This document shows positions 9,392-50,221 of a stretch of DNA of 64,000 bases, one piece after another; within the stretch, counting starts at the first letter, position 1, and every line of letters starts with the position of its first letter. The stretch is from positions 12,719 through 76,718 of the forward strand of contig JANWLH010000039.1 in NCBI GenBank assembly GCA_025450915.1, read 5' to 3'. Source of the stretch: Candidatus Limnocylindrales bacterium. Its GTDB lineage: Bacteria > Chloroflexota > Limnocylindria > Limnocylindrales > CSP1-4. The translations under genes and the position numbers were made by a program. The notes under the pieces are model-generated. The model was not told the origin of the DNA. It worked only from the letters and a program-made list of their open reading frames with translations, and searched no databases.

Positions 9392-10591
9392 CTACCGTGC
9401 GGGTTGGCTCCGGCCCAGGCCCATGAGCGGCGGTTGCGGATCGAGGCCGCGCCCGAGGAGGACCGCCCGGAACCCGCCCAGCGCGGCCGGATCCAGGAGC
9501 CGGGCAATCGCCGAGCGCAGGCCGAGCCACTCCTCCATCGACGTCTTCGGATTCGAGCGAACCCGGTCGACCAGCTCCTCGAGTCCGCAGCCCACCAGGA
9601 GCTCGGCCTGGCTCACCTCGCCGAGCACGGTGAGCTCGTGGGTCCGAGCGGCGGCCTCGAGCGCGGTCAGGTCGACGTGGGCCGTCAGGTCCTGGCGGCC
9701 GACCGCGATGAACGGGTCGGCGTGGGCGCGCTGGCCGGAGTACGCCCGCAACGTTCCGCCGCGCCGGGCCGGATCGTAGAGCGCCGGCGCCTGATGGCCG
9801 TAGTCGATGACCAGGACGAGGCCCTGCTCGAGGTCCGCCGCGACCCCGGCCAGCCAGGGTTCGACCTCGAGGCAGACCTCGCCGACCTGGCCGTCGAGCA
9901 GCGTGACGCCGTCCTCGTCGAGCCGGGCGGCCAGCGCATCGGTCGACGGTTCGCCGGGCTGCTCGACCAGCCTGCCGGCAGCGTCATCCCAGGCCACGAA
10001 CAGCTCCCGAAGCCGGCAGCCGTCCTGCTCGACACGATGGACGGGCAGGGCATCGAGGAACTCGTTGGCCAGGACGACGCCCGTGAACCGGCTCGGGCCG
10101 CCCGCCCGCCTGGTCCTGGCGGCCGGCCCGAGGCGTTCGACGGCCTCGGTGCGGCGCACCTCGTTGATCTCGACTGGCTCGTAGCGCAGCACGTCCCCGA
10201 GGCCCGAGTCGTCGGCGCGCAGGCCATCGAGGATCGCTGCGGCGAGCGTCCCGGATCCCGCACCGTACTCGCGCATGACGAACGGGTCGGGTCGCTCGAG
10301 GCGCCGCCAGACCTCGTCCACCTGCCGGCCGATCACTGCCCCGAAGATCGGATGGAGCTCCGGCGCCGTGAGGAAGTCGCCACTCCGGCTCGGCCGGTCG
10401 GCGGCCACCCGGTAGTAGCCGTGGTCGGGGTCATACAGCGCGATCGCCATGAACCGGGCGAACGTCAGCGGCCCGCTTGCAGCGATCTCGGCCCGGATGC
10501 GCTCGATGAGCACCGGCTCGCTGTCCGTTGCCAGGGGCCCGGCCGGCTCATCCCGGCGGAGCCCGGGCTCGAAGGGCTTCGGTCCGCTCAA
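9392..10591 (-). CDS. MidA/NDUFAF7-family (DUF185) class I SAM-dependent methyltransferase
   Basis: GDFLTAPELHPIFGAVIG...REYGAGSGTLAAAIL matches the MidA/NDUFAF7 signature (GDFxTAPE + GxGxG SAM motif). Immediately upstream of nuoA on the same strand. Confidence 0.75.
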   Translation of the reverse strand: MSGPKPFEPGLRRDEPAGPLATDSEPVLIERIRAEIAASGPLTFARFMAIALYDPDHGYYRVAADRPSRSGDFLTAPELHPIFGAVIGRQVDEVWRRLERPDPFVMREYGAGSGTLAAAILDGLRADDSGLGDVLRYEPVEINEVRRTEAVERLGPAARTRRAGGPSRFTGVVLANEFLDALPVHRVEQDGCRLRELFVAWDDAAGRLVEQPGEPSTDALAARLDEDGVTLLDGQVGEVCLEVEPWLAGVAADLEQGLVLVIDYGHQAPALYDPARRGGTLRAYSGQRAHADPFIAVGRQDLTAHVDLTALEAAARTHELTVLGEVSQAELLVGCGLEELVDRVRSNPKTSMEEWLGLRSAIARLLDPAALGGFRAVLLGRGLDPQPPLMGLGRSQPAR

Positions 10592-10601
10592 GCGTTGCTG
10601 C

Positions 10602-11663
10602 TCAGGCAGTCGCGACGAGCCGGATCCCAGGTCCGACCAGGGAGTGGCCGCCGAGGAGGATCGGGATCGTCGCGCCGGCAGCCGACCGGGTCAGCGCGGC
10701 CAGCCAGGGATCGGCGATCGAGTCGGCCTGGAGCAGGTCCGAGCCGAACCGGTCCTCGGCCACCGGCCAGGTCGATTCGTCCGCTCCGAGACGATGGGCG
10801 AGGAGGACCCGGCTGTCGATCAAGGCCGCGTCGCCCAGCTCGGCCAGGCGGACGCCGAGCGCCGCCGGCCCGTCGGAGTCGAGGATCGAGCCCAGAACGG
10901 AACGTGGCGGCCGCTGGGGACGATCGGTAGGCAGGCGGACCGAGGCGTGCAGCCCGCGCTCCTCGACGAGCGCCCTCACGCGGCACCGGGCGAAGCCTTC
11001 GAGCCAGCTCAGCACGGCGGCCGATGTCCGGCCGGCGATCACGAGCTCGGCCGCCGCGTCGTCGAGGACCCGGCGGATCCCCGCGAGGCGCTCGATGACC
11101 GGGCCATCTTCGGGGTGGTCGCCGGGATCGATCGACGCCTCGCGCCGGCCGAGCAGGACGAGATCGAGGGGCGAATCGAGGTCCACGCCGAGACGCTGGC
11201 GTGCCCGCAGGTCGGCGACCGGGATTCCCGCCTGCTCCGACAGCCAGCGCGGCAGCACGTTGTCGGTCGCGAGGTCCGCCGGCACGGCCCGGAGCCAGCC
11301 GGCATCGGCGACCGCCAGGACATCGGACGAGAAGCGATTGTTCGTGACGGCCATCGGCCCGCCACCTCCGGCGCACGCCACGAACGCCCGCCGATCGACC
11401 AGGCCGGCCAGGGGGATGGCCCCGGAGCCGAGGAGGATCAGGCCGCCATCGGGAACGTCGGGCAGCGCCTGCGCGAGCCGGCTGCCGAACGGCAATCCGT
11501 CGGGCAGTCCCGCGACGATCCGCACGGTCGTGGCCCCGGCGCGCAGGAACCCGGTCTCGTGGACCCGCGCGAGCCGCTCCCTGGCGAGCGCAAGGCGGCG
11601 TTCGAGGATCCCGGACCCGGGGCCGGCCTGCGGGTGGAAGATGAGGACGGTGATCGGACGCAC
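10602..11663 (-). CDS. Hypothetical protein (function unknown)
   Basis: ~354-aa ORF with a GTG start at 11663 (VRPITVLIFHPQAGPGSG...). Codon usage is consistent with neighbours. No motif recognised. Confidence 0.45.
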   Translation of the reverse strand: MRPITVLIFHPQAGPGSGILERRLALARERLARVHETGFLRAGATTVRIVAGLPDGLPFGSRLAQALPDVPDGGLILLGSGAIPLAGLVDRRAFVACAGGGGPMAVTNNRFSSDVLAVADAGWLRAVPADLATDNVLPRWLSEQAGIPVADLRARQRLGVDLDSPLDLVLLGRREASIDPGDHPEDGPVIERLAGIRRVLDDAAAELVIAGRTSAAVLSWLEGFARCRVRALVEERGLHASVRLPTDRPQRPPRSVLGSILDSDGPAALGVRLAELGDAALIDSRVLLAHRLGADESTWPVAEDRFGSDLLQADSIADPWLAALTRSAAGATIPILLGGHSLVGPGIRLVATA

Positions 11664-11721
11664 GGACCGAGTGTATGGGGCCCGGCGGCCGGAGTCCTCG
11701 GAGCCATGTTCTGGAGGTCGG

Positions 11722-12358
11722 GTTGGCGCAGCGGCGGGTTCGGGCGTATGTGGGCCTGGGGGCCAACCTCGGTGAGGCGGCCGGGACCCTGGCCGCGGCG
11801 ATCCATGCCCTGGCGGCACTGCCGGATTCGCGTCTCGTAGCGGTCTCGCGGCTGTATGCCACCGATCCGGTCGGCGACACGGATCAGCCCGAGTTTCGCA
11901 ACGCCGCGGTCGCGCTCGATGTGCCGGCGGGACCCGATCTCGCCACGGGCGCAACGTTCCTGCTCGTCGCCCTCAAGGGCCTCGAGATCGCCTTCGGCCG
12001 CCAGGCGCGACGTCGCTGGGGGCCGCGCGAACTCGACCTCGACCTGCTCGTCTTCGGGCGGGCTCGGCTGGCGATCGATCGCCCCGCCGCGGCTCGCTCG
12101 CGGGACGCCGTCGTTGATCCGGCGAAAGCGAGTCGCCTGCTCGAGGTCCCGCACCCTTCGGCGGCCGAGCGCCTCTTCGTCCTGGCGCCGCTCGCCGACC
12201 TGGCCGAGGGCCTGATTCCGGCGGGCTGGCACGAGAGCGTTGCCAGTGCTCGCCGCCGTCGCGAGATCGCCGAGGGTCCGACCGCGGTCCGGCCGATCGC
12301 CGAGTGGGATCGCGTGGCCGGCGACTGGCGCCCGCTCGCGGAGCCAGCCTCGACCTAG
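11722..12358 (+). CDS. folK: 2-amino-4-hydroxy-6-hydroxymethyldihydropteridine pyrophosphokinase (HPPK)
   Basis: RAYVGLGANLG...SRLYATDPVGDTDQPEFRNAAVALD...RRWGPRELDLDLLVFG matches HPPK. The exact start (TTG 11722, GTG 11748, or ATG 11675) is uncertain. Confidence 0.8.
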
Positions 12359-35432: not shown

Positions 35433-36722
35433 CTACGGCTGGCCCGCGCCGGCCGGGCTCAACCAGGCGGTTGCCTGGTAGGCGTCCGGGGCGCCGCGGT
35501 CCCCGACCAGGATCACCTTGTCGTTCCAGGCTGTCGCGGCGTTGACCTCGTTGTCGAGGAACTCCGGACCGTCGGGCACCCGCTTCCAGGCGAGCCCGTC
35601 CGACGATGTCCAGATGGCCGCCTCGCCGTACTGGACGCCGGCGTCGAGCGTGCCCGCGACGACGACGCCGCCCAGGCCGGCGGTCACGGCGTACATCCGG
35701 ACCTGGATCCCGACCCGGCCGAAGATCGGATCGGCCGGCGTCCGCTGCCAGCTGCGGCCGTCCTTCGAGATCCACATGATGCCGGTGTCGCCCTTGAGAT
35801 CCTCGCCGACGGCCACGAAGCCGATCGACGGGACGCTGGCGACCGCCCGCAGCCGGCCGCCGTCGAAGATCCGGCCCTCGAGGACCCGGCTCCAGCTCAG
35901 GCCGTCTTTCGAAGTCCAGATGATCGGCGGTCCGGGCGTATCGGCCGGTCCGGTCTGGCCGACGGCCACGAGGCCCGCCGGTCCCGCGGCGACGCCCCAC
36001 ACCCGGGCGTCATGGAAGCTCGGCGAGTCCGTGGCCTGCTTCCAGGTCAGGCCATCGGGCGAGACCCACAGTGCCGCATCGGCCGAGAAGAACTCGTTGC
36101 CCTTGTAGCCGCCGGCCACGAACCCGCCCTTCCATGGGGTGATCGACGTCAGCCGAAGGGGCGACGCCGAGAACACCGGGCTGGTCACCTTCTGCCAGGT
36201 CGCGGCGTCGGTCGAGGTCCAGGCCGTTGCGCCGTTGCCGTCCCGCCCGACCGCGACGTACCGTCCGCCGTTGACTGCCACGGCGGACAGCAGCGATTGG
36301 GCCGGGAAGCTACCGGTGAAGGTCCACGTCGATCCATCCGTGGACCGCCAGCTCGCGCCGCTGAAATCCTGGAGGACCCAGCCGACGGCAACCAGTCCCG
36401 CGGGCCCGGCGGTCACGCCGGTCATGAGCGTGTCGATGGCCGGGTGGCAGGGAGCGCAGCCGCGAGTGATCACGACGCCCGTCTGGGGGGTCATGAAGCC
36501 GTCGGGCTGCTCGATGTTCGGGGCCCGCAACCAGGCCGATGGATCGATGCTGGCCGGCGCCGTGCTGGCCGATGGGGCGGGTGCGATGGACCCGGCTGGG
36601 GCACTGGCAACGGGAACGGAAGTCGGCGAGGCGATCGGTGTGGCGGTCGGCGCCGGGCTCGCGCAGGCCGAGACCAGGAGCGCGACGACGACGACGAGGG
36701 TCGCTGCGGTGGCTCGTGTCAC
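35433..36722 (-). CDS. Lipoprotein with six BNR/Asp-box (S-x-D-x-G-x-T-W) repeats, predicted beta-propeller
   Basis: Lipobox LLVSAC. Repeats STDGSTWTF, TSTDAATWQ, VSPDGLTWK, TSKDGLSWS, ISKDGRSWQ, TSSDGLAWK. Confidence 0.7.
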   Translation of the reverse strand: MTRATAATLVVVVALLVSACASPAPTATPIASPTSVPVASAPAGSIAPAPSASTAPASIDPSAWLRAPNIEQPDGFMTPQTGVVITRGCAPCHPAIDTLMTGVTAGPAGLVAVGWVLQDFSGASWRSTDGSTWTFTGSFPAQSLLSAVAVNGGRYVAVGRDGNGATAWTSTDAATWQKVTSPVFSASPLRLTSITPWKGGFVAGGYKGNEFFSADAALWVSPDGLTWKQATDSPSFHDARVWGVAAGPAGLVAVGQTGPADTPGPPIIWTSKDGLSWSRVLEGRIFDGGRLRAVASVPSIGFVAVGEDLKGDTGIMWISKDGRSWQRTPADPIFGRVGIQVRMYAVTAGLGGVVVAGTLDAGVQYGEAAIWTSSDGLAWKRVPDGPEFLDNEVNAATAWNDKVILVGDRGAPDAYQATAWLSPAGAGQP

Positions 36723-43161: not shown

Positions 43162-43659
43162 ATGCGCCACCCTCGTGAGGTCAGGCCCGTCGGCGTGGAC
43201 TACCAGGTTCGGACGGCTCGCATCACCGATGTCGATCGGCTCGTCGCGCTCTTCGCGCCGGGCCTCGACCCGGCCGGCGGGCCGCTCGTGGCAGCCGATC
43301 TTCTGCGGCAGCTCATCTATCTGCCGCAGGCCAGCGTGCTCGTCGTCGAACGGCGGCGGGAGGTCATCGGCGGCGCGGTCCTCGCCCTTCGTCCCTCGGT
43401 GCGCGCCGGCGGATATATCGGCACGATCGACCTGCTGACCGTTGACCAGGACGCCGACGCAGTGAGCGTCACCAACGACCTGCTCGAGGAGATCTTTCGT
43501 TCCGCGCGCAACAAGGGCTGCACCGTCGTCGAGGCGGCGCTGCCCATCGATCCCGGCGAGCGAGCCCGTTGGGAAGATCGTGGCTTCACCATTGGCGGCT
43601 CGCTCATGACCCGGTCCGTGGCGGCCCGCAAGGCCGCCGCGCGCCAGGTCCGAATCTGA
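43162..43659 (+). CDS. Putative GNAT-family N-acetyltransferase
   Basis: 165 aa. Weak GNAT-like motif arrangement (..VLVVERRREVIGGAVLAL.., ..SARNKGCTVVEAAL..). Low-certainty call. Confidence 0.4.
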   Translation: MRHPREVRPVGVDYQVRTARITDVDRLVALFAPGLDPAGGPLVAADLLRQLIYLPQASVLVVERRREVIGGAVLALRPSVRAGGYIGTIDLLTVDQDADAVSVTNDLLEEIFRSARNKGCTVVEAALPIDPGERARWEDRGFTIGGSLMTRSVAARKAAARQVRI

Positions 43660-43717
43660 TCCCCGCCGAGCTGCGCAGCCTGCGCCGGCGGTTCGCACAC
43701 AGGACATAGGAGTCAAC

Positions 43718-45670
43718 GTGGGCAAGAACGTCGCCGTCTTCGTGGACGTCGCGAACATCTTTTATGCGGCCAAGGCCGCCGGCGTCGACATCGATTACGT
43801 GACGCTGTTGAAATCGGCCATCGCCGGACGCGACTTCGTCCGGGCGTACGCCTACACCGGGCTCGACCCGGACAACGAGAACCAGCGCAACTTCCATGCG
43901 TTCCTGGCCCGGCACAGCTACAAGGTCGTGAGCAAGGACATCCGGAAGTACGGCGACGGCAAGGTCAAGGCAAACCTGGATATCGAGCTCGTCGTCGACC
44001 TGATGAAGACCGCCCGCAATCTCGATGTCGCGATCATCGTGTCGGGCGACGGCGACTTCGCGCCGGCCATCCGCGCCGTCCAGGAGATGGGCGTTCGCTG
44101 CGAGGTCATCAGCTTCCGGGGCAACACCAGCTCGGACCTGATCGAGGTCGCCGACCTGTTCACCGACATCACCCAGATCGCCAAGGTCGAGAAGGGCTCG
44201 TCGCGCTCCGGCCGGCGGGTCGCCGATGACGATGAAGACCTGTCGATGACCGAAGTCCCCGACAAGCAGACCGAGGGCACCGGCGTCGGCCGGGGCCGCG
44301 GAACGCGTGGCGGCCGGACCCGGACGACCCGGGTTGGCGAGCCCGAGCCGGTGGCCGCGGCCGCCCGCCCGGCCACTCGTGGTCGCCGGCCCGCCGAGCC
44401 AGCCCTCGAGGTCGCGGCAAGTGCCGCTCCGGTCGCGCCGGCCGCCTTCACGGCTGGCCTGGTGGCATTGCCCGGAGAGAAGCTGTCCAAGGCGGCCATC
44501 GCCGCGGCTGCCCGGGCGGCCGAACCCGTGGCCGTACCGGTCGCGGCGGAGCCCGAGTTCGAGCTCGACATCGAGGAAGAGGAGATCCTTGCCGGCCAGG
44601 CGGCCGGTGGCGAATCCGAGGCCGAGGGCCAGCGCAGGCGGCGCCGTCGTGGTGGCCGTGGCCGCGGTCGCGGTCGGGGCCGGGCAGAGGGCGAGCCCGT
44701 GGCCGGAGCCGTCGCTCCGCCGCGGGAGATCATTGCCCGTCCGCTCGAGCTCGACGAGGACGAGGAAGAAGAGGACATCCCGGTCGCGCCGCGACCGCCG
44801 CGGTCGGCCGCATTCGGCTCCTTCTGGGACAGCCAGATCGGCATGGATCGGGCGCCCGCCGCGAATCTCTCGCCGCTCGACGTCGACGACGAGGACGAGC
44901 CGGCGATCCCCGAGTACCTGATCGCCGAGCAGCGGCGCGGCAACCGGCCGGTCGGCCGGGATGGCCGTCGACCGGGTGGTGGCGGGCCCCAGCGTGGAGG
45001 CCGGGGTGGCGGCTATTCCGCCGCGGTCGACCGCGAGCGCGACGGCCGTGGTGGGGGTGGCGGCGGCGGGATCAACCGCTATCCGGGCGTCTCCGCCCGC
45101 CGGCCCGAGGAGCGTCCCCGGAACGACGATCGGCCGGCGATCGCCCCGCGCCAGGAACGGCCGAAGGGCGGCGACGAGCCGTGGAGCGAGGTTCCGCCCG
45201 AGCTCGAGGCGATGCTCCGGGCCCAGATCGCGGCCAAGCCGGCAAGTCGACCGTCCGGGCGACCGGCAGGTCGTGCGCCGGAGGCAGCACCCGTCGCGGA
45301 AGCCGCTCCGGCAGCAGCAGACGCTCCGGCGGCGGCCCCGGCCCGTCGTGGACGGCCGCCCAAGGCTGCCGCGGCAGCGGTTCCGGCCGAGGCTGCCGGC
45401 GCCGATTCGGCAGCACCGAAGCGTCGGACCGCGACGCGGCGCCCGTCCGAGCCGGTCGTCGCGGCTGCCGAAGCGCCGGCCCCCGAGGATCCAGCGGCTC
45501 GCAAGCGGACCTCGACCCGGTCCGCGGCAGCGACGGCGTCCGCGCCGGCCCCCGAAGCGGCTCCGGCCGCCAAGCGGCGCGGCCCGGCCAAGGCAACGGC
45601 TGCCGAGGCGCCGGCCGAAGCGCCGGCCGCGGCTCCGAAGCGGCGCGCGACCCGGAAGGTTGCCGAGTAA
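43718..45670 (+). CDS. NYN-domain (PIN-like) ribonuclease fused to a ~480-aa disordered tail with RGG/RG repeats, acidic blocks and AT-hook-like RRGRPPK / Ala-Pro-Lys-Arg-rich segments
   Basis: NYN/LabA-like core VAVFVDVANIFY...YAYTG...DIELVVD...VAIIVSGDGDFAPAIRAV. Tail carries GRGRGTRGGRTR, RRRRRRGGRGRGRGRGR, GGGGPQRGGRGGGY, EEEDIPVAP, ARRGRPPKAAAA, KRRGPAKA, PKRRATRKV. GTG start follows an AGGAG Shine-Dalgarno. Confidence 0.7.
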   Translation: MGKNVAVFVDVANIFYAAKAAGVDIDYVTLLKSAIAGRDFVRAYAYTGLDPDNENQRNFHAFLARHSYKVVSKDIRKYGDGKVKANLDIELVVDLMKTARNLDVAIIVSGDGDFAPAIRAVQEMGVRCEVISFRGNTSSDLIEVADLFTDITQIAKVEKGSSRSGRRVADDDEDLSMTEVPDKQTEGTGVGRGRGTRGGRTRTTRVGEPEPVAAAARPATRGRRPAEPALEVAASAAPVAPAAFTAGLVALPGEKLSKAAIAAAARAAEPVAVPVAAEPEFELDIEEEEILAGQAAGGESEAEGQRRRRRRGGRGRGRGRGRAEGEPVAGAVAPPREIIARPLELDEDEEEEDIPVAPRPPRSAAFGSFWDSQIGMDRAPAANLSPLDVDDEDEPAIPEYLIAEQRRGNRPVGRDGRRPGGGGPQRGGRGGGYSAAVDRERDGRGGGGGGGINRYPGVSARRPEERPRNDDRPAIAPRQERPKGGDEPWSEVPPELEAMLRAQIAAKPASRPSGRPAGRAPEAAPVAEAAPAAADAPAAAPARRGRPPKAAAAAVPAEAAGADSAAPKRRTATRRPSEPVVAAAEAPAPEDPAARKRTSTRSAAATASAPAPEAAPAAKRRGPAKATAAEAPAEAPAAAPKRRATRKVAE

Positions 45671-45711
45671 CCAATCTCGGCCAACGGGCCAGGCGCTGAA
45701 AGGCGACGCCA

Positions 45712-46919
45712 TGACCGTCGGGCGGCAGTGGATCACCCGGGCCGCGCCCGGGACGCTCTCCGCTGCCGCCGCGATCGTCGAGGGCGCGGCCGCCCACGCG
45801 GTCCTGATCGCGGGGCCGCCGTCGGTCGGCAAGATGACCCTTGCCGATGACCTCGCCGCCGGCTTGCTGTGCGTTGCTCCGGATCCGGCGAATCGGCCCT
45901 GTCGCGCATGCCGGGGCTGCCGGCTCGTCGCCGGGGCCAATCATCCCGACCTGCACCGGCTGGGTCCCGAAGGGCCCGGCGGCCAGGTGGTGATCGGCGA
46001 CTCGGCGCGGCCCGCCGGGCGTGGCGTTCGCAACCTCGTCGCCAAGCTCGCCTACCTGCCGGTCGAAGGCGGCCATCGCGTCGCGATCGTCGAGCACGCC
46101 GAGCGGATGAACGAGGATGCCCAGAACGCCCTCCTGAAGACGCTCGAAGAGCCTCCGCCGCGGACCACGCTCATCCTGTCCGCCGACGAGGAGGACCGTC
46201 TCCTGCCGACGGTCCGCTCACGCTGCGTCCGGTTGCGCATGGCGCCGCTCGGCATCCGGGCGATCGAGGATCTGCTCGTCGAGCGGGGCGTCGCCGATGC
46301 CTCGGTCGCTGCCCGGCTTGCCCGGATCGCGGCCGGCCGGCCGGGCGTCGCGATGGCCTATGCCCGGCTTCCGGAAGCCGTGACGATCCACGACGAGATC
46401 GCCCGCAGCCTGCTCGACCTCCTGTCGGCGCCGGTGTCGGCGCGGCTCGTCTCCGGGCGGGAGCTGATCGAGCGAGCCGTCGCCCTCGATACCGCGCTTC
46501 GCCCAGTCGAGCCGGCGGTCGTCCCGGCGGCCCGTCTGCCGCGCGGATCTTCGAAGGGTCCTCGCCCGGCAACCCCGGTCCCAACCGCTGATGAGGCCGA
46601 CGCCGGAGGCGAGGCGCCGGCCACCGGCAAGCGCTCACCCGCCGAGCGGCGGCGAGGCGTGCTGGTCCTGCTCGACCTGTGGCGCGACGTGGCCCTCGAC
46701 CTGGCGATTGCCGCCCTGGGTGGCCGCCACGAGGTCCGGGACCCGGCCCTGCTGGACGACCTGGTCGCGAGCGCGAGCATTGTTCGGCCCCAGCAGATCG
46801 GCGCATTCCTCGTCCACCTCGACCGGATCGCCGAGCTCGTCGAGGGCAACACCGGGCCGGAGCTGGCGATCGACGTTCTCGTCCTCGCCTGGCGTCCCGC
46901 CGCCTCCGCCGCGGCCTGA
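45712..46919 (+). CDS. holB: DNA polymerase III subunit delta-prime
   Basis: HAVLIAGPPSVGKMTLA, PCRACRGCRLVAGANHPDL zinc module, NALLKTLEEPPPRTTLIL, VRSRCVRL. Confidence 0.85.
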
Positions 46920-46922
46920 GGC

Positions 46923-47243
46923 GTGGATCCCGGTTCGTCGACCGGCTCGGCGTTCGAGCGCCTCGAAGCGACGGTCACCGGCCGCGTCCAGGCCGTGGGC
47001 TTCCGTGTCTTCGTCGCGAGCCGGGCCGCAACGCTGGGCCTGACCGGCTGGGTCCGGAACGGCTCCGACGGCTCGGTCGAATGCGTCGCCGAGGGGCGCC
47101 GGGCGGATCTCGAGATGCTTCTCGCCGCCCTCGAGCTTGGCCCATCCGGTGCTCGGGTCGATGCTGTCAGCCGTTCCTGGACGGTTGCCACGGGATCATT
47201 CGACCGCTTCTCGATCGCCAGCGGCTGGACCTCCGGCGACTGA
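46923..47243 (+). CDS. acyP: Acylphosphatase
   Basis: VTGRVQAVGFRVF...GLTGWVRNGSDGSVECVAEG matches the acylphosphatase signatures. Confidence 0.8.
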   Translation: MDPGSSTGSAFERLEATVTGRVQAVGFRVFVASRAATLGLTGWVRNGSDGSVECVAEGRRADLEMLLAALELGPSGARVDAVSRSWTVATGSFDRFSIASGWTSGD

Positions 47244-49253: not shown

Positions 49254-49559
49254 ATGGCTGGACCCACGATCGGCGCGCTCCTCGAGTCGGCAGTTGCCGC
49301 CGAGGAGGCCCTCGCCGAGCTCGGCGAGACGATCGAGGACGAGTGGTCGTACGTGAATGACCTGCGCCAGGCCTGGACCGATCGGCTCGACGAGGTCGCG
49401 GCTGGGCCGACGGGAGCGCGCGAGGCCAGCCCGGAGATCGTCGACGCGATCGAGCTGGCCATCGAAGAGGCCGGCCTCGTCCACGATCCCCATCGGGCGA
49501 TCGACTGGCTCTCCACCTTGCCCCAGGTAGTCCTCCTCGCCGCCGAATCGCTGGCCTGA
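49254..49559 (+). CDS. Small acidic hypothetical protein (pI very low), translationally coupled to downstream gene
   Basis: 101 aa rich in Glu/Asp/Ala. Stop/start overlap (ATGA) with the 49559 gene. Confidence 0.45.
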   Translation: MAGPTIGALLESAVAAEEALAELGETIEDEWSYVNDLRQAWTDRLDEVAAGPTGAREASPEIVDAIELAIEEAGLVHDPHRAIDWLSTLPQVVLLAAESLA

Positions 49560-50221
49560 TGCGCTTCCAGGACGCGGCGAAGGACGGCCGGGCGGTGGTC
49601 TACGCGGCGATCCAGGCCGATCCGCTCGTGGCCCGAGCCGCCGAGCTCCTCAGCCAGGCGACGCTCGGGGAGCGAATCCTCGCCCGCGCGGTCATGAACG
49701 GCGAATCGACCGACGCCGATCGCTGGCGGCGGATCTTTCCGAGCCTCTTCTCGTCCGCCAGCGCCGAGCGTGCCGTCGAAATCCTCGCGGTTTCGCTCGC
49801 CGTCGCCGACCGCGGCGAGCAGGTCCGAAGCCAGGTTCGCGGCGCGATTGTCGAGGAGCTGACCGCGCGCCTGCTCGCGAGGCGGGCGTCGCCGGCCGCC
49901 GTCCGGCGCGAGCGTCGGATCCTGTTCGACGGCGTGCCCGCCGAGATCCATCCCTACGACGTGACCGTCGAGGCGGCCGGCGCGGGCGAGGCGTTCGATT
50001 GCAAGTGGGGCGCGCGGGGGATCAACGCCGACGTCCTCCACCAGCTCGACGACGCGCGGACCCACGCGCTCGATGAAGACGAGCCGCTCAACGTGGCGAT
50101 CGTGGTCTTCGACGCCGAGCGCTCCTGCCGGGTCCGGCTGGATGCGCAGACGGCGCCCCACGCGCAGACCCGCCTTGTTGCCATCGAGCAGCTGGACACC
50201 CTCGCAGGCCCGCGCCAGTGA
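49559..50221 (+). CDS. Hypothetical protein with possible PD-(D/E)xK nuclease-like motif
   Basis: ..ILFDGVPAEIHPYDVTVEAAGAGEAFDCKWG.. gives an hYD ... ExxDCK spacing resembling the PD-(D/E)xK core. Otherwise unrecognised. Confidence 0.45.
   Translation: MRFQDAAKDGRAVVYAAIQADPLVARAAELLSQATLGERILARAVMNGESTDADRWRRIFPSLFSSASAERAVEILAVSLAVADRGEQVRSQVRGAIVEELTARLLARRASPAAVRRERRILFDGVPAEIHPYDVTVEAAGAGEAFDCKWGARGINADVLHQLDDARTHALDEDEPLNVAIVVFDAERSCRVRLDAQTAPHAQTRLVAIEQLDTLAGPRQ

Follow-up and report, generated by a model that had tools for sequence, protein, structure and literature searches.

A clade-fixed NYN-domain protein with a conserved, scaffold-like tail in the Chloroflexota class Limnocylindria

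A 64,000-nucleotide stretch of Candidatus Limnocylindrales DNA (assembly GCA_025450915.1, contig JANWLH010000039.1; hereafter the window, to which all nucleotide (nt) coordinates refer) encodes a protein of 650 amino acids (aa) in which an N-terminal NYN nuclease domain is followed by a long, charged tail (43718..45670, + strand). Across >170 homologues, a near-invariant NYN core precedes ~8 conserved tail islands, and the linkers between these islands vary in both length and sequence. A known nuclease domain is here found in a clade-fixed, scaffold-like architecture that is undescribed in the literature searched: we found no published account of a NYN nuclease from bacteria carrying a tail of this kind, and searches on NYN proteins with degradosomes, on Limnocylindria RNases or RNA decay and on the Chloroflexota RNase inventory gave nothing relevant. 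We judge the chances about even that the protein is a class-specific, single-copy housekeeping endoribonuclease, with a tail that would act as an RNA-binding, partner-recruiting scaffold similar to the RNase E C-terminal domain. In the current view, three endonucleases (RNase E/G, RNase Y and RNase J) organise the decay of mRNA in bacteria, and in two of them degradosomes and condensates are assembled by disordered scaffold regions. If the proposed reading is true, a scaffold tail rich in short motifs would have evolved independently on a PIN-like NYN nuclease and be fixed across a whole abundant soil class, providing a case of convergent architecture, and a concrete, testable function would be gained for the LabA-type NYN proteins, which form a large family of no known biochemical role.

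The NYN (LabA-like, PIN-like) domain spans aa 4-151 (43727..44170, +) and matches Pfam PF01936 with an E-value of 6.9e-33 (score 114.6 bits, curated cutoff 24.2 bits), covering positions 1-144 of the 145 in the model. The closest solved structure is 2QIP (VPA0982 of Vibrio parahaemolyticus; E 6.7e-16), with 31% identity in a MAFFT alignment. Both HMMER and MAFFT align the putative catalytic residues D10, D88 and D111 with 2QIP D14, D92 and D115. A first-pass annotation of the window, made from the letters alone, had proposed a NYN core with its acidic residues retained and had allowed that catalytic residues might prove to be lost; all three are kept, and are invariant in the family together with D94 and D113 (SGDGDF motif). 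According to the paper on the CRISPR-associated NYN RNase, 2QIP D14/D92/D115 are equivalent to MARF1 D358/D426/D452 and to D13/D118/D143 of the Bacteroides fragilis NYN protein, the D13A variant of which is inactive. In the case of MARF1, the corresponding paper reports that D426A/D427A strongly lowers endoribonuclease activity. Because all PF01936-type NYN enzymes assayed so far are metal-dependent endonucleases acting on single-stranded RNA (ssRNA), we infer that RNA is the substrate here and that the D10/D88/D111 site would cleave it.

Profile and catalytic motifs thus place the protein in the NYN (PF01936, LabA-like) family. NYN is its only Pfam domain, with no OST-HTH/LOTUS match at E up to 0.1, and neither FEN/H3TH nor 5'-3' exonuclease features were found. 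The lack of a PF05991 (NYN_YacP) match means that it does not belong to the YacP/Rae1 family. The protein sits outside RNase E/G, YacP/Rae1, NYN plus LOTUS proteins, AT-hook proteins and the defence NYN systems. A full-length AlphaFold2 model built on a 25-sequence family alignment reached a mean predicted local distance difference test score (pLDDT) of only 42.9 and is usable only for the order of secondary-structure elements, while a model of residues 1-200 reached 44.5. We attribute the low confidence to a family alignment too invariant to help the predictor. The order of elements in these low-confidence models (pLDDT 43-45) would fit a PIN-like three-layer alpha/beta fold. A Foldseek search of the PDB with the poor model placed 2QIP on top (E 1.2e-3, probability 0.96) with a root-mean-square deviation of 12 Å, and was not used as evidence.

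The architecture can be compared with that of characterised NYN proteins. The N-terminal 150 aa are homologous to LabA-like NYN proteins (PF01936, NYN.COG1432; 2QIP, VPA0982) and share with them DVxN, D88, D94 and SGDGDF. VPA0982-type proteins are either stand-alone (~160 aa) or fused to OST-HTH/LOTUS, and none has been reported with this tail (PMC5499597); the window protein differs in having an unusually invariant core followed by a clade-specific 500-aa region. The CRISPR type III-associated NYN protein of B. fragilis has a D13/D118/D143 triad corresponding to D10/D88/D111, and has demonstrated Mn2+-dependent ssRNA cleavage. It is a small, stand-alone, tail-less accessory nuclease of a defence locus, a different genomic context. 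The eukaryotic RNA-granule NYN endoribonucleases MARF1 and plant DNE1 have an equivalent catalytic triad, and join NYN to RNA-binding and protein-docking elements in association with the mRNA-decay machinery (PMC6294520). In those enzymes, the additional elements are folded RRM and LOTUS/OST-HTH domains and a short DCP1-binding motif, unlike the window protein, in which no folded accessory domain was detected; MARF1 structures were not retrieved by sequence search with the window protein. Rae1/YacP (PF05991), the ribosome-dependent endoribonuclease of Bacillus subtilis, likewise falls within the NYN-like branch of the PIN-like nucleases and is encoded in a housekeeping setting on the chromosome. 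Its Pfam family is another one, however, and in place of a long tail it has a GYN motif and basic helices at the C-terminus (PMC5499597).

The gene appears fixed in one class. A scan using one genome per species yielded 76 loci, nearly all from Limnocylindria/Limnocylindrales or from generically labelled Chloroflexota metagenome-assembled genomes, and no genome yielded two loci. The homologue search returned >2300 proteins, the best 120 of which are 528-698 aa long (nearly all 600-690) with NYN as their only Pfam domain. Over 75 genomes, the median identity of the NYN core is 92%, compared with 51% for the adjacent holB gene product (61% for its AAA+ part), 59% for an acetyltransferase-like neighbour, 53% for an acylphosphatase and 60% for LivH. 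The gap between the core and holB, the acetyltransferase-like neighbour and LivH points to a strongly constrained core function, and as judged from these identities the constraint on the core is exceptional for a PIN-like nuclease. Near-invariance of the core further suggests an essential activity in a lineage beyond present genetic study.

Such conservation (92% against 51-61% for neighbouring genes) is also typical of ribosome-interacting factors. A different reading, which we regard as rather unlikely, is that the protein matures stable RNA or is ribosome-associated, processing ribosomal RNA (rRNA) or transfer RNA (tRNA) precursors or cutting ribosome-bound mRNA as Rae1/YacP does, with the basic, RG-rich tail serving to bind rRNA or the ribosome and not as a degradosome-type scaffold. 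Binding of rRNA is typical of RG-rich and KRR-rich tails. Gene context has led to predictions of tRNA or rRNA processing for bacterial NYN domains (PMC5499597), and Synechocystis LabA/NYN proteins co-purify by immunoprecipitation with ribosomes and an RNA-binding protein (PMC12232666). Against this stand the absence of PF05991 noted above and a conserved neighbourhood without rRNA, tRNA or ribosome-biogenesis genes; in the window, rsmG is ~13 kb away and a tRNA-Gly gene 4 kb away, beyond other genes. Simple rRNA binding also leaves the acidic blocks and the several distinct peptide motifs of the tail unexplained.

Islands in the tail were defined from alignments of 25 and of 118 family members, and motif counts refer mostly to 172 proteins. 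In codon alignments of 57 homologues, third-position diversity exceeds that of positions 1 and 2 by 2- to 9-fold in the islands, compared with a ratio of ~1.2-1.5 in the linkers. Selection therefore acts on the peptides rather than on a DNA repeat, and the codon pattern identifies the islands as being under protein-level purifying selection. Tandem Repeats Finder detected only weak arrays. The first island, aa 153-192 (QIAKVEKGSSRSGRRVADDDEDLSMTEVPDKQTEGTGVGR; 44174..44293, +), directly follows and lies outside the canonical NYN fold, and has the consensus VEKGSSRSGRRVADDxEDLSMTEVPDKQTEGTG. Its amino-acid diversity is 0.21, compared with 0.08 for the core, and it is more conserved than most tail islands, with DLSMTEVPDK present in 167 of the 172 proteins. 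It is followed by GLVALPGEKLS (aa 247-257; 44456..44488, +), which has a third versus first/second-position diversity ratio of 2.3 and an LPGE[KR]L motif in 162/172 proteins. An RG/RGG-like Arg block, RRRRRRGGRGRGRGRGR (aa 306-322; 44633..44683, +), is invariant in the 25-member alignment and occurs in 168/172 proteins; in this R6(GR)n block, codon diversity is 0.645 at the third position and 0.06-0.08 at the first two.

The remaining islands lie further towards the C-terminus. PRxPRxxxFGSxWDSQIG (aa 358-375; 44789..44842, +) includes FGS.WD, which is found in all 172 soil-type proteins and is absent from 463-aa aquatic forms. EPAIPEYLIAEQRR (aa 394-407; 44897..44938, +) combines an acidic run, IPEYL and a basic end, and here a short helix is predicted at aa 399-408, with low confidence, in the full-length model. 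The partly overlapping internal segment DVDDEDEPAIPEYL (aa 388-401, nt 44879-44920), in which I-P-[aromatic] comes after an acidic run, resembles the C-terminal tip of bacterial SSB (DDDIPF), to which many replication and repair proteins bind. An RG- and Gly-rich pair, RGGRxxGYxxAVDRERxGR (aa 426-444; also listed as RGGRxxGYxxAVDRERYGR) and GGINRYPxVS (aa 449-461; also listed as GGINRYPDVS), occupies 44993..45100 (+) and is lost in the aquatic forms. Finally, EPWSEVPPELEAMLRAQ (aa 487-503; 45176..45226, +) coincides with the best-predicted tail helix, at aa 494-506, where the model reaches its highest pLDDT (68-74 over aa 491-510).

The divergent aquatic homologues of 463 aa (Limnocylindrus and Aquidulcis; loci L062, L070 and L071) have a shortened tail in which the FGSxWDSQ and NRYP islands are lost. 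They retain the NYN core, the post-NYN motif, the R6-GR block, PEYLATERR and a variant of the helix motif, DVSPDVAALLQSQ. Their C-terminal basic repeats are Lys-rich and resemble histone H1 (AAKPAAK), in contrast to the Arg-rich repeats (APKRRTTRK) found elsewhere. For these three loci, the acetyltransferase-like, acylphosphatase and Liv neighbours were undetected at E 1e-5.

The tail is found only behind this NYN domain among the best 150 of 259 matches obtained when a tail-only profile (aa 153-510) was searched against 1.84 billion representative proteins at E ≤ 1e-3. In most of these 150 the tail begins at residue 153, or the entry is a fragment; all 19 atypical matches that were examined proved to be this NYN family itself, frameshifted copies, or run-on calls into holB and the acylphosphatase gene. 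Joining of the tail to other domains was considered and rejected, as long outliers proved to be run-on or frameshifted calls into holB and acylphosphatase, or ordinary NYN members. The first-pass annotation had allowed for an unconserved tail, or for a frameshift after the NYN domain; we find the tail to be conserved in every intact homologue.

In terms of composition, A, R, P, G and E make up 69% of the 498-aa tail (aa 153-650). This agrees with the initial description of a low-complexity tail, a label that nevertheless misses its defining property, the conserved short motifs. The RG-rich blocks, acidic blocks and basic A/P-rich repeats that had also been described are all present: we counted 15 RG and 5 RGG, acidic runs and four [AP][KR][KR]R units. 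The RG/RGG motifs are clustered in a low-complexity context, as in RGG/RG boxes, and are putative RNA-binding elements. The fraction of charged residues is 0.32, the tail is near-neutral overall, basic residues are mostly Arg, and hydrophobic residues account for 13%. Charge is arranged in alternating blocks, with a segregation z of 7.5 relative to 2000 shuffles, none of which (0/2000) reached the observed value. Beyond the last island, the variable, A/P/T-rich C-terminus (45227..45667, +; identified from alignments and motif counts) is net basic with repeated [APT][KR][KR]R units; across relatives, it has a median net charge of +12 and a median of 3 such units. The composition and the variable linkers suggest that the tail is disordered, evidence that is compositional and evolutionary in kind. 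Low pLDDT in the tail is uninformative in this respect, since both AlphaFold models have low confidence everywhere.

Long non-catalytic extent, clade-conserved short motifs and variable charged linkers are likewise features of degradosome scaffolds, and the closest parallel is the RNase E C-terminal domain. In E. coli, Caulobacter, Pseudomonas and cyanobacteria, RNase E similarly combines an endonuclease with a charged, Arg-rich and largely unstructured region of ~500 aa (PMC4435900). RNase E C-terminal domains are the established bacterial case of a disordered scaffold on a nuclease; short motifs conserved within clades bind RNA there and act as docking sites for PNPase, helicases and enolase (gamma-proteobacteria: PMC4435900). 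Short linear motifs are carried by that of Pseudomonas (PMC11964227), and in cyanobacteria a nonapeptide containing R6 docks PNPase (PMC3964918), a precedent for the R6 motif of the window tail. For NYN proteins themselves, the co-purification of Synechocystis LabA/NYN proteins noted above (PMC12232666) is a further precedent. Both tails have clade-conserved short motifs between variable linkers as well as Arg-rich segments, for which an RNA-binding role is putative in the window protein. Bulk values are closely matched between the window tail and the E. coli RNase E C-terminal domain: 498 versus 532 aa, a charged fraction of 0.32 versus 0.30, and R/(R+K) of 0.83 versus 0.79. It is on account of these matching values and of the established RNase E precedent that an RNase E-like scaffold role is proposed. 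Charge segregation is stronger in the window tail (z = 7.5 versus 2.0), and no membrane-targeting helix is evident there, unlike in RNase E. The two proteins share no homology: the RNase E/G fold is composed of S1, 5'-sensor and DNase I-like elements, whereas the catalytic domain here is NYN. As no RNase E/G catalytic domain occurs in the window protein, it is not an RNase E/G member, and the likeness is functional and architectural only. These precedents (PMC4435900, PMC11964227, PMC3964918) contradict the initial view that a nuclease with a charged, disordered, motif-bearing region is unusual in bacteria, and make the bacterial degradosome scaffold a closer analogy than the eukaryotic RNA-granule nucleases first invoked. 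The observation made in the first-pass annotation is confirmed and strengthened, and its interpretation is partly supported.

The second Arg-rich RNA-binding segment of E. coli RNase E (aa ~811-822) reads RRRRYRDERYP, and aa 436-456 of the window protein (nt ~45023-45085) read VDRERxGR...NRYP near Arg/Gly runs. This Arg/Tyr-rich resemblance may be coincidental, and no homology is claimed.

Under the scaffold reading, the NYN domain would cut ssRNA in a Mg2+- or Mn2+-dependent manner via the D10/D88/D111 acidic cluster, with the C-terminal region of ~500 residues, presumed to be a largely unstructured polyampholyte, serving as the scaffold. The Arg/Gly-rich blocks and basic C-terminal repeats would bind RNA multivalently, and the conserved short motifs would either be docking sites for partner proteins or regulate the nuclease by folding back. 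Candidate docking or regulatory motifs are the post-NYN segment, LPGEKL, FGSxWDSQ, IPEYLIAEQRR, DRERYGR/NRYP and the PPELEAMLRAQ helix; as conserved peptide islands, these offer ready handles for finding partners. Alternating charge blocks could in addition promote clustering. Partner docking, the scaffold function and condensation of the tail are all speculative, as is the targeting to the nucleoid or condensates suggested in the first-pass annotation. In a more far-reaching version that we consider unlikely, the NYN protein would organise a new type of RNA degradosome or ribonucleoprotein body in Limnocylindria, a third independent solution besides RNase E and RNase Y. Its short motifs would then recruit exonucleases and helicases, the blocky polyampholyte tail would drive RNA-dependent clustering, and the protein might partly or wholly replace the RNase E/Y scaffold in the class.

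A number of points weigh against the scaffold reading. The tail motifs match no known docking motif, and a scaffold would be less necessary should Limnocylindria encode RNase E/G, Y or J. LabA-type NYN.COG1432 proteins are, as a group, without demonstrated nuclease activity (PMC5499597). In a charge-hydropathy plot, the tail (0.414) falls just barely within the disordered region, the boundary of which is at 0.418. The two AlphaFold models, with their low confidence, lend no independent support to the fold geometry or to tail disorder. The predicted helices have unremarkable hydrophobic moments, and on this basis a membrane-anchoring or strongly amphipathic helix was rejected. Lastly, the conserved linkage to holB could point to a DNA function instead.

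The holB gene (DNA polymerase III delta'; 45711..46919, +; PF13177, E 6e-39) starts 40 nt downstream of the NYN-tail stop codon, confirming its initial placement directly downstream. With no terminator-like site between the two genes in the window, their arrangement suggests that they are probably co-transcribed. A frame-corrected query (first 200 aa, tblastn, at least 60% coverage) detected holB in 69/76 loci, reporting presence only and not position; an earlier position-reporting search, made with a mis-framed holB query, had flagged it in only ~20 loci. The linkage, together with an acylphosphatase gene that is syntenic in most loci, would suit a DNA-directed nuclease of the nucleoid or replisome that cuts DNA flaps or RNA-DNA hybrids in replication or repair, tethered to the chromosome by a basic H1- or AT-hook-like C-terminus. 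The SSB-like acidic run with IPEY described above would also suit such a role. The C-terminus is indeed net basic and A/P-rich, and the AAKPAAK repeats of the aquatic forms are similar to bacterial H1-like tails; the 'actinobacterial H1-like' framing first given to the tail names the wrong taxon, as the host belongs to the uncultured, mainly soil-dwelling class Limnocylindria (Chloroflexota) and is not an actinobacterium. The AT-hook reported initially is also present, as an AT-hook-like RRGRPPK with an RGRP core at aa 543-549 (45344-45364, +), but does not characterise the family: just 21/158 relatives have RGRP in their C-terminus, and the AT-hook was rejected as a functional element. A DNA role is further disfavoured by the fact that all characterised PF01936-type NYN enzymes are RNases, by the lack of FEN/H3TH, 5'-3' exonuclease or other Pfam features, and by the RG/RGG blocks, which are better known as RNA binders. 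Operons with holB commonly hold functionally unrelated housekeeping genes, and the present cluster also includes acylphosphatase and acetyltransferase-like genes. On balance, we regard a DNA-directed function as quite improbable.

Gene order is the same in nearly all loci: acetyltransferase-like gene, NYN, holB and acylphosphatase; livJ and livH lie upstream and are encoded on the opposite strand. The upstream neighbour (43162..43659, +) encodes a 165-aa, GNAT-like acetyltransferase-like protein, syntenic in ~70/76 loci; the assignment is weak (phrog_1249 acetyltransferase, E 5e-5; PDB GNAT proteins, E 0.016-0.075; no Pfam match at 1e-3). The acylphosphatase gene (46923..47243, +; PF00708, E 4e-24) begins 3 nt after holB. 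Synteny and conservation together indicate a housekeeping gene and speak against a part in defence or as a toxin. It is accordingly exceedingly unlikely that the protein is a NYN nuclease of the defence or toxin type, or mobile-element cargo, with the tail as a sensor or inhibitor, even though NYN domains are known as CRISPR type III accessory nucleases (bioRxiv 10.1101/2024.04.08.588522) and the PADLOC NYN model PDLC01154 matches the domain with E 4.5e-21. The match is confined to positions 149-298 of the 310 in that model, its generic NYN half, and since it is domain-level only, membership of a defence system was rejected. The neighbours are housekeeping genes with no defence genes among them, no antitoxin-like partner is present, and the gene occupies a single locus in a conserved neighbourhood in 76 genomes of one class. 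Defence genes would be expected to diversify rapidly and to be patchily distributed, the reverse of the near-invariant sequence seen here, and synteny and conservation essentially exclude this role.

The coding status of the frame was checked because ~70% GC yields long chance ORFs in several frames. The ORF at 43718..45670, supported by the ORF listing and by homologue lengths, starts with GTG, and GC content at third codon positions (GC3) is 0.76-0.94 over most of its length, dropping to 0.62 only at aa 501-550. In codon alignments of the 57 complete genomic homologues, the frame is kept and the pattern of nucleotide diversity is that of the translated frame throughout. The Shine-Dalgarno AGGAG (43708..43712, +; read from the sequence) lies 5 nt 5' of the start, and the combination of a strong Shine-Dalgarno, AAGGAGTC, with GTG rather than ATG (window 43708-43720) is kept across 75 genomes of the class. 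This combination may set the translation level of the gene. In the same 75 loci, nothing else upstream is conserved and there is no sign of a structured leader; autoregulation through such a leader, as known for rne, was thus rejected, with Rfam also giving no match in the window.

Alternative-frame and antisense ORFs overlap the NYN gene at 43604..45940 (-, 778 aa), 44961..46919 (+, 652 aa) and 43918..44943 (-, 341 aa), and are by-products of high GC. Upstream of the real holB start, the holB frame remains open for 750 nt through the NYN tail, and this accounts for the database gene calls that run on. Many public gene calls of the family are frameshifted within the GC-rich tail, with an intact N-terminus followed by out-of-frame R/P/S-rich junk, and others run on into holB and acylphosphatase or fuse the upstream acetyltransferase-like gene to NYN (faulty calls: P0203, P0207, P0208, P0230, P0237, P0240, P0257, P0221; P0161, P0218, P0259, P0254). 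The tail frameshifts in database entries are assembly errors, and automated annotations of the family are consequently unreliable in the tail. Three of the 76 loci carry other submitter labels, Ca. Sulfomarinibacteraceae (L048) and Anaerolineaceae/Anaerolinea (L015 and L047). All three share the Limnocylindria-type upstream order (acetyltransferase-like gene, livJ, livH), and L015 and L047 also have the acylphosphatase gene; the submitter taxonomy is probably wrong, or the contigs misbinned.

The window otherwise represents ordinary chromosome, with the Nuo operon, glpX, purH, clpB, lon, trkA, rsmG, the Liv ABC transporter, a GGDEF/HD-GYP protein and one tRNA-Gly. ARAGORN places the tRNA-Gly(GCC) at 49865-49939 (+), in disagreement with an Rfam scan of the whole window at gathering thresholds, which gave zero matches, even for the tRNA family. 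The ORF call at 49559-50221, which overlaps the tRNA gene, is probably spurious. The gene status of a 463-aa ORF at 10449-11840 (+) is doubtful, as it has atypical codon-position GC (GC1 0.82, GC2 0.59, GC3 0.81) and no Pfam match. At 35433-36722 (-), a predicted lipoprotein of 429 aa with an A/P/S-rich N-terminal linker has no Pfam match at 1e-5, and its repeated W-x-S-x-DG-x-x-W units suggest a beta-propeller.

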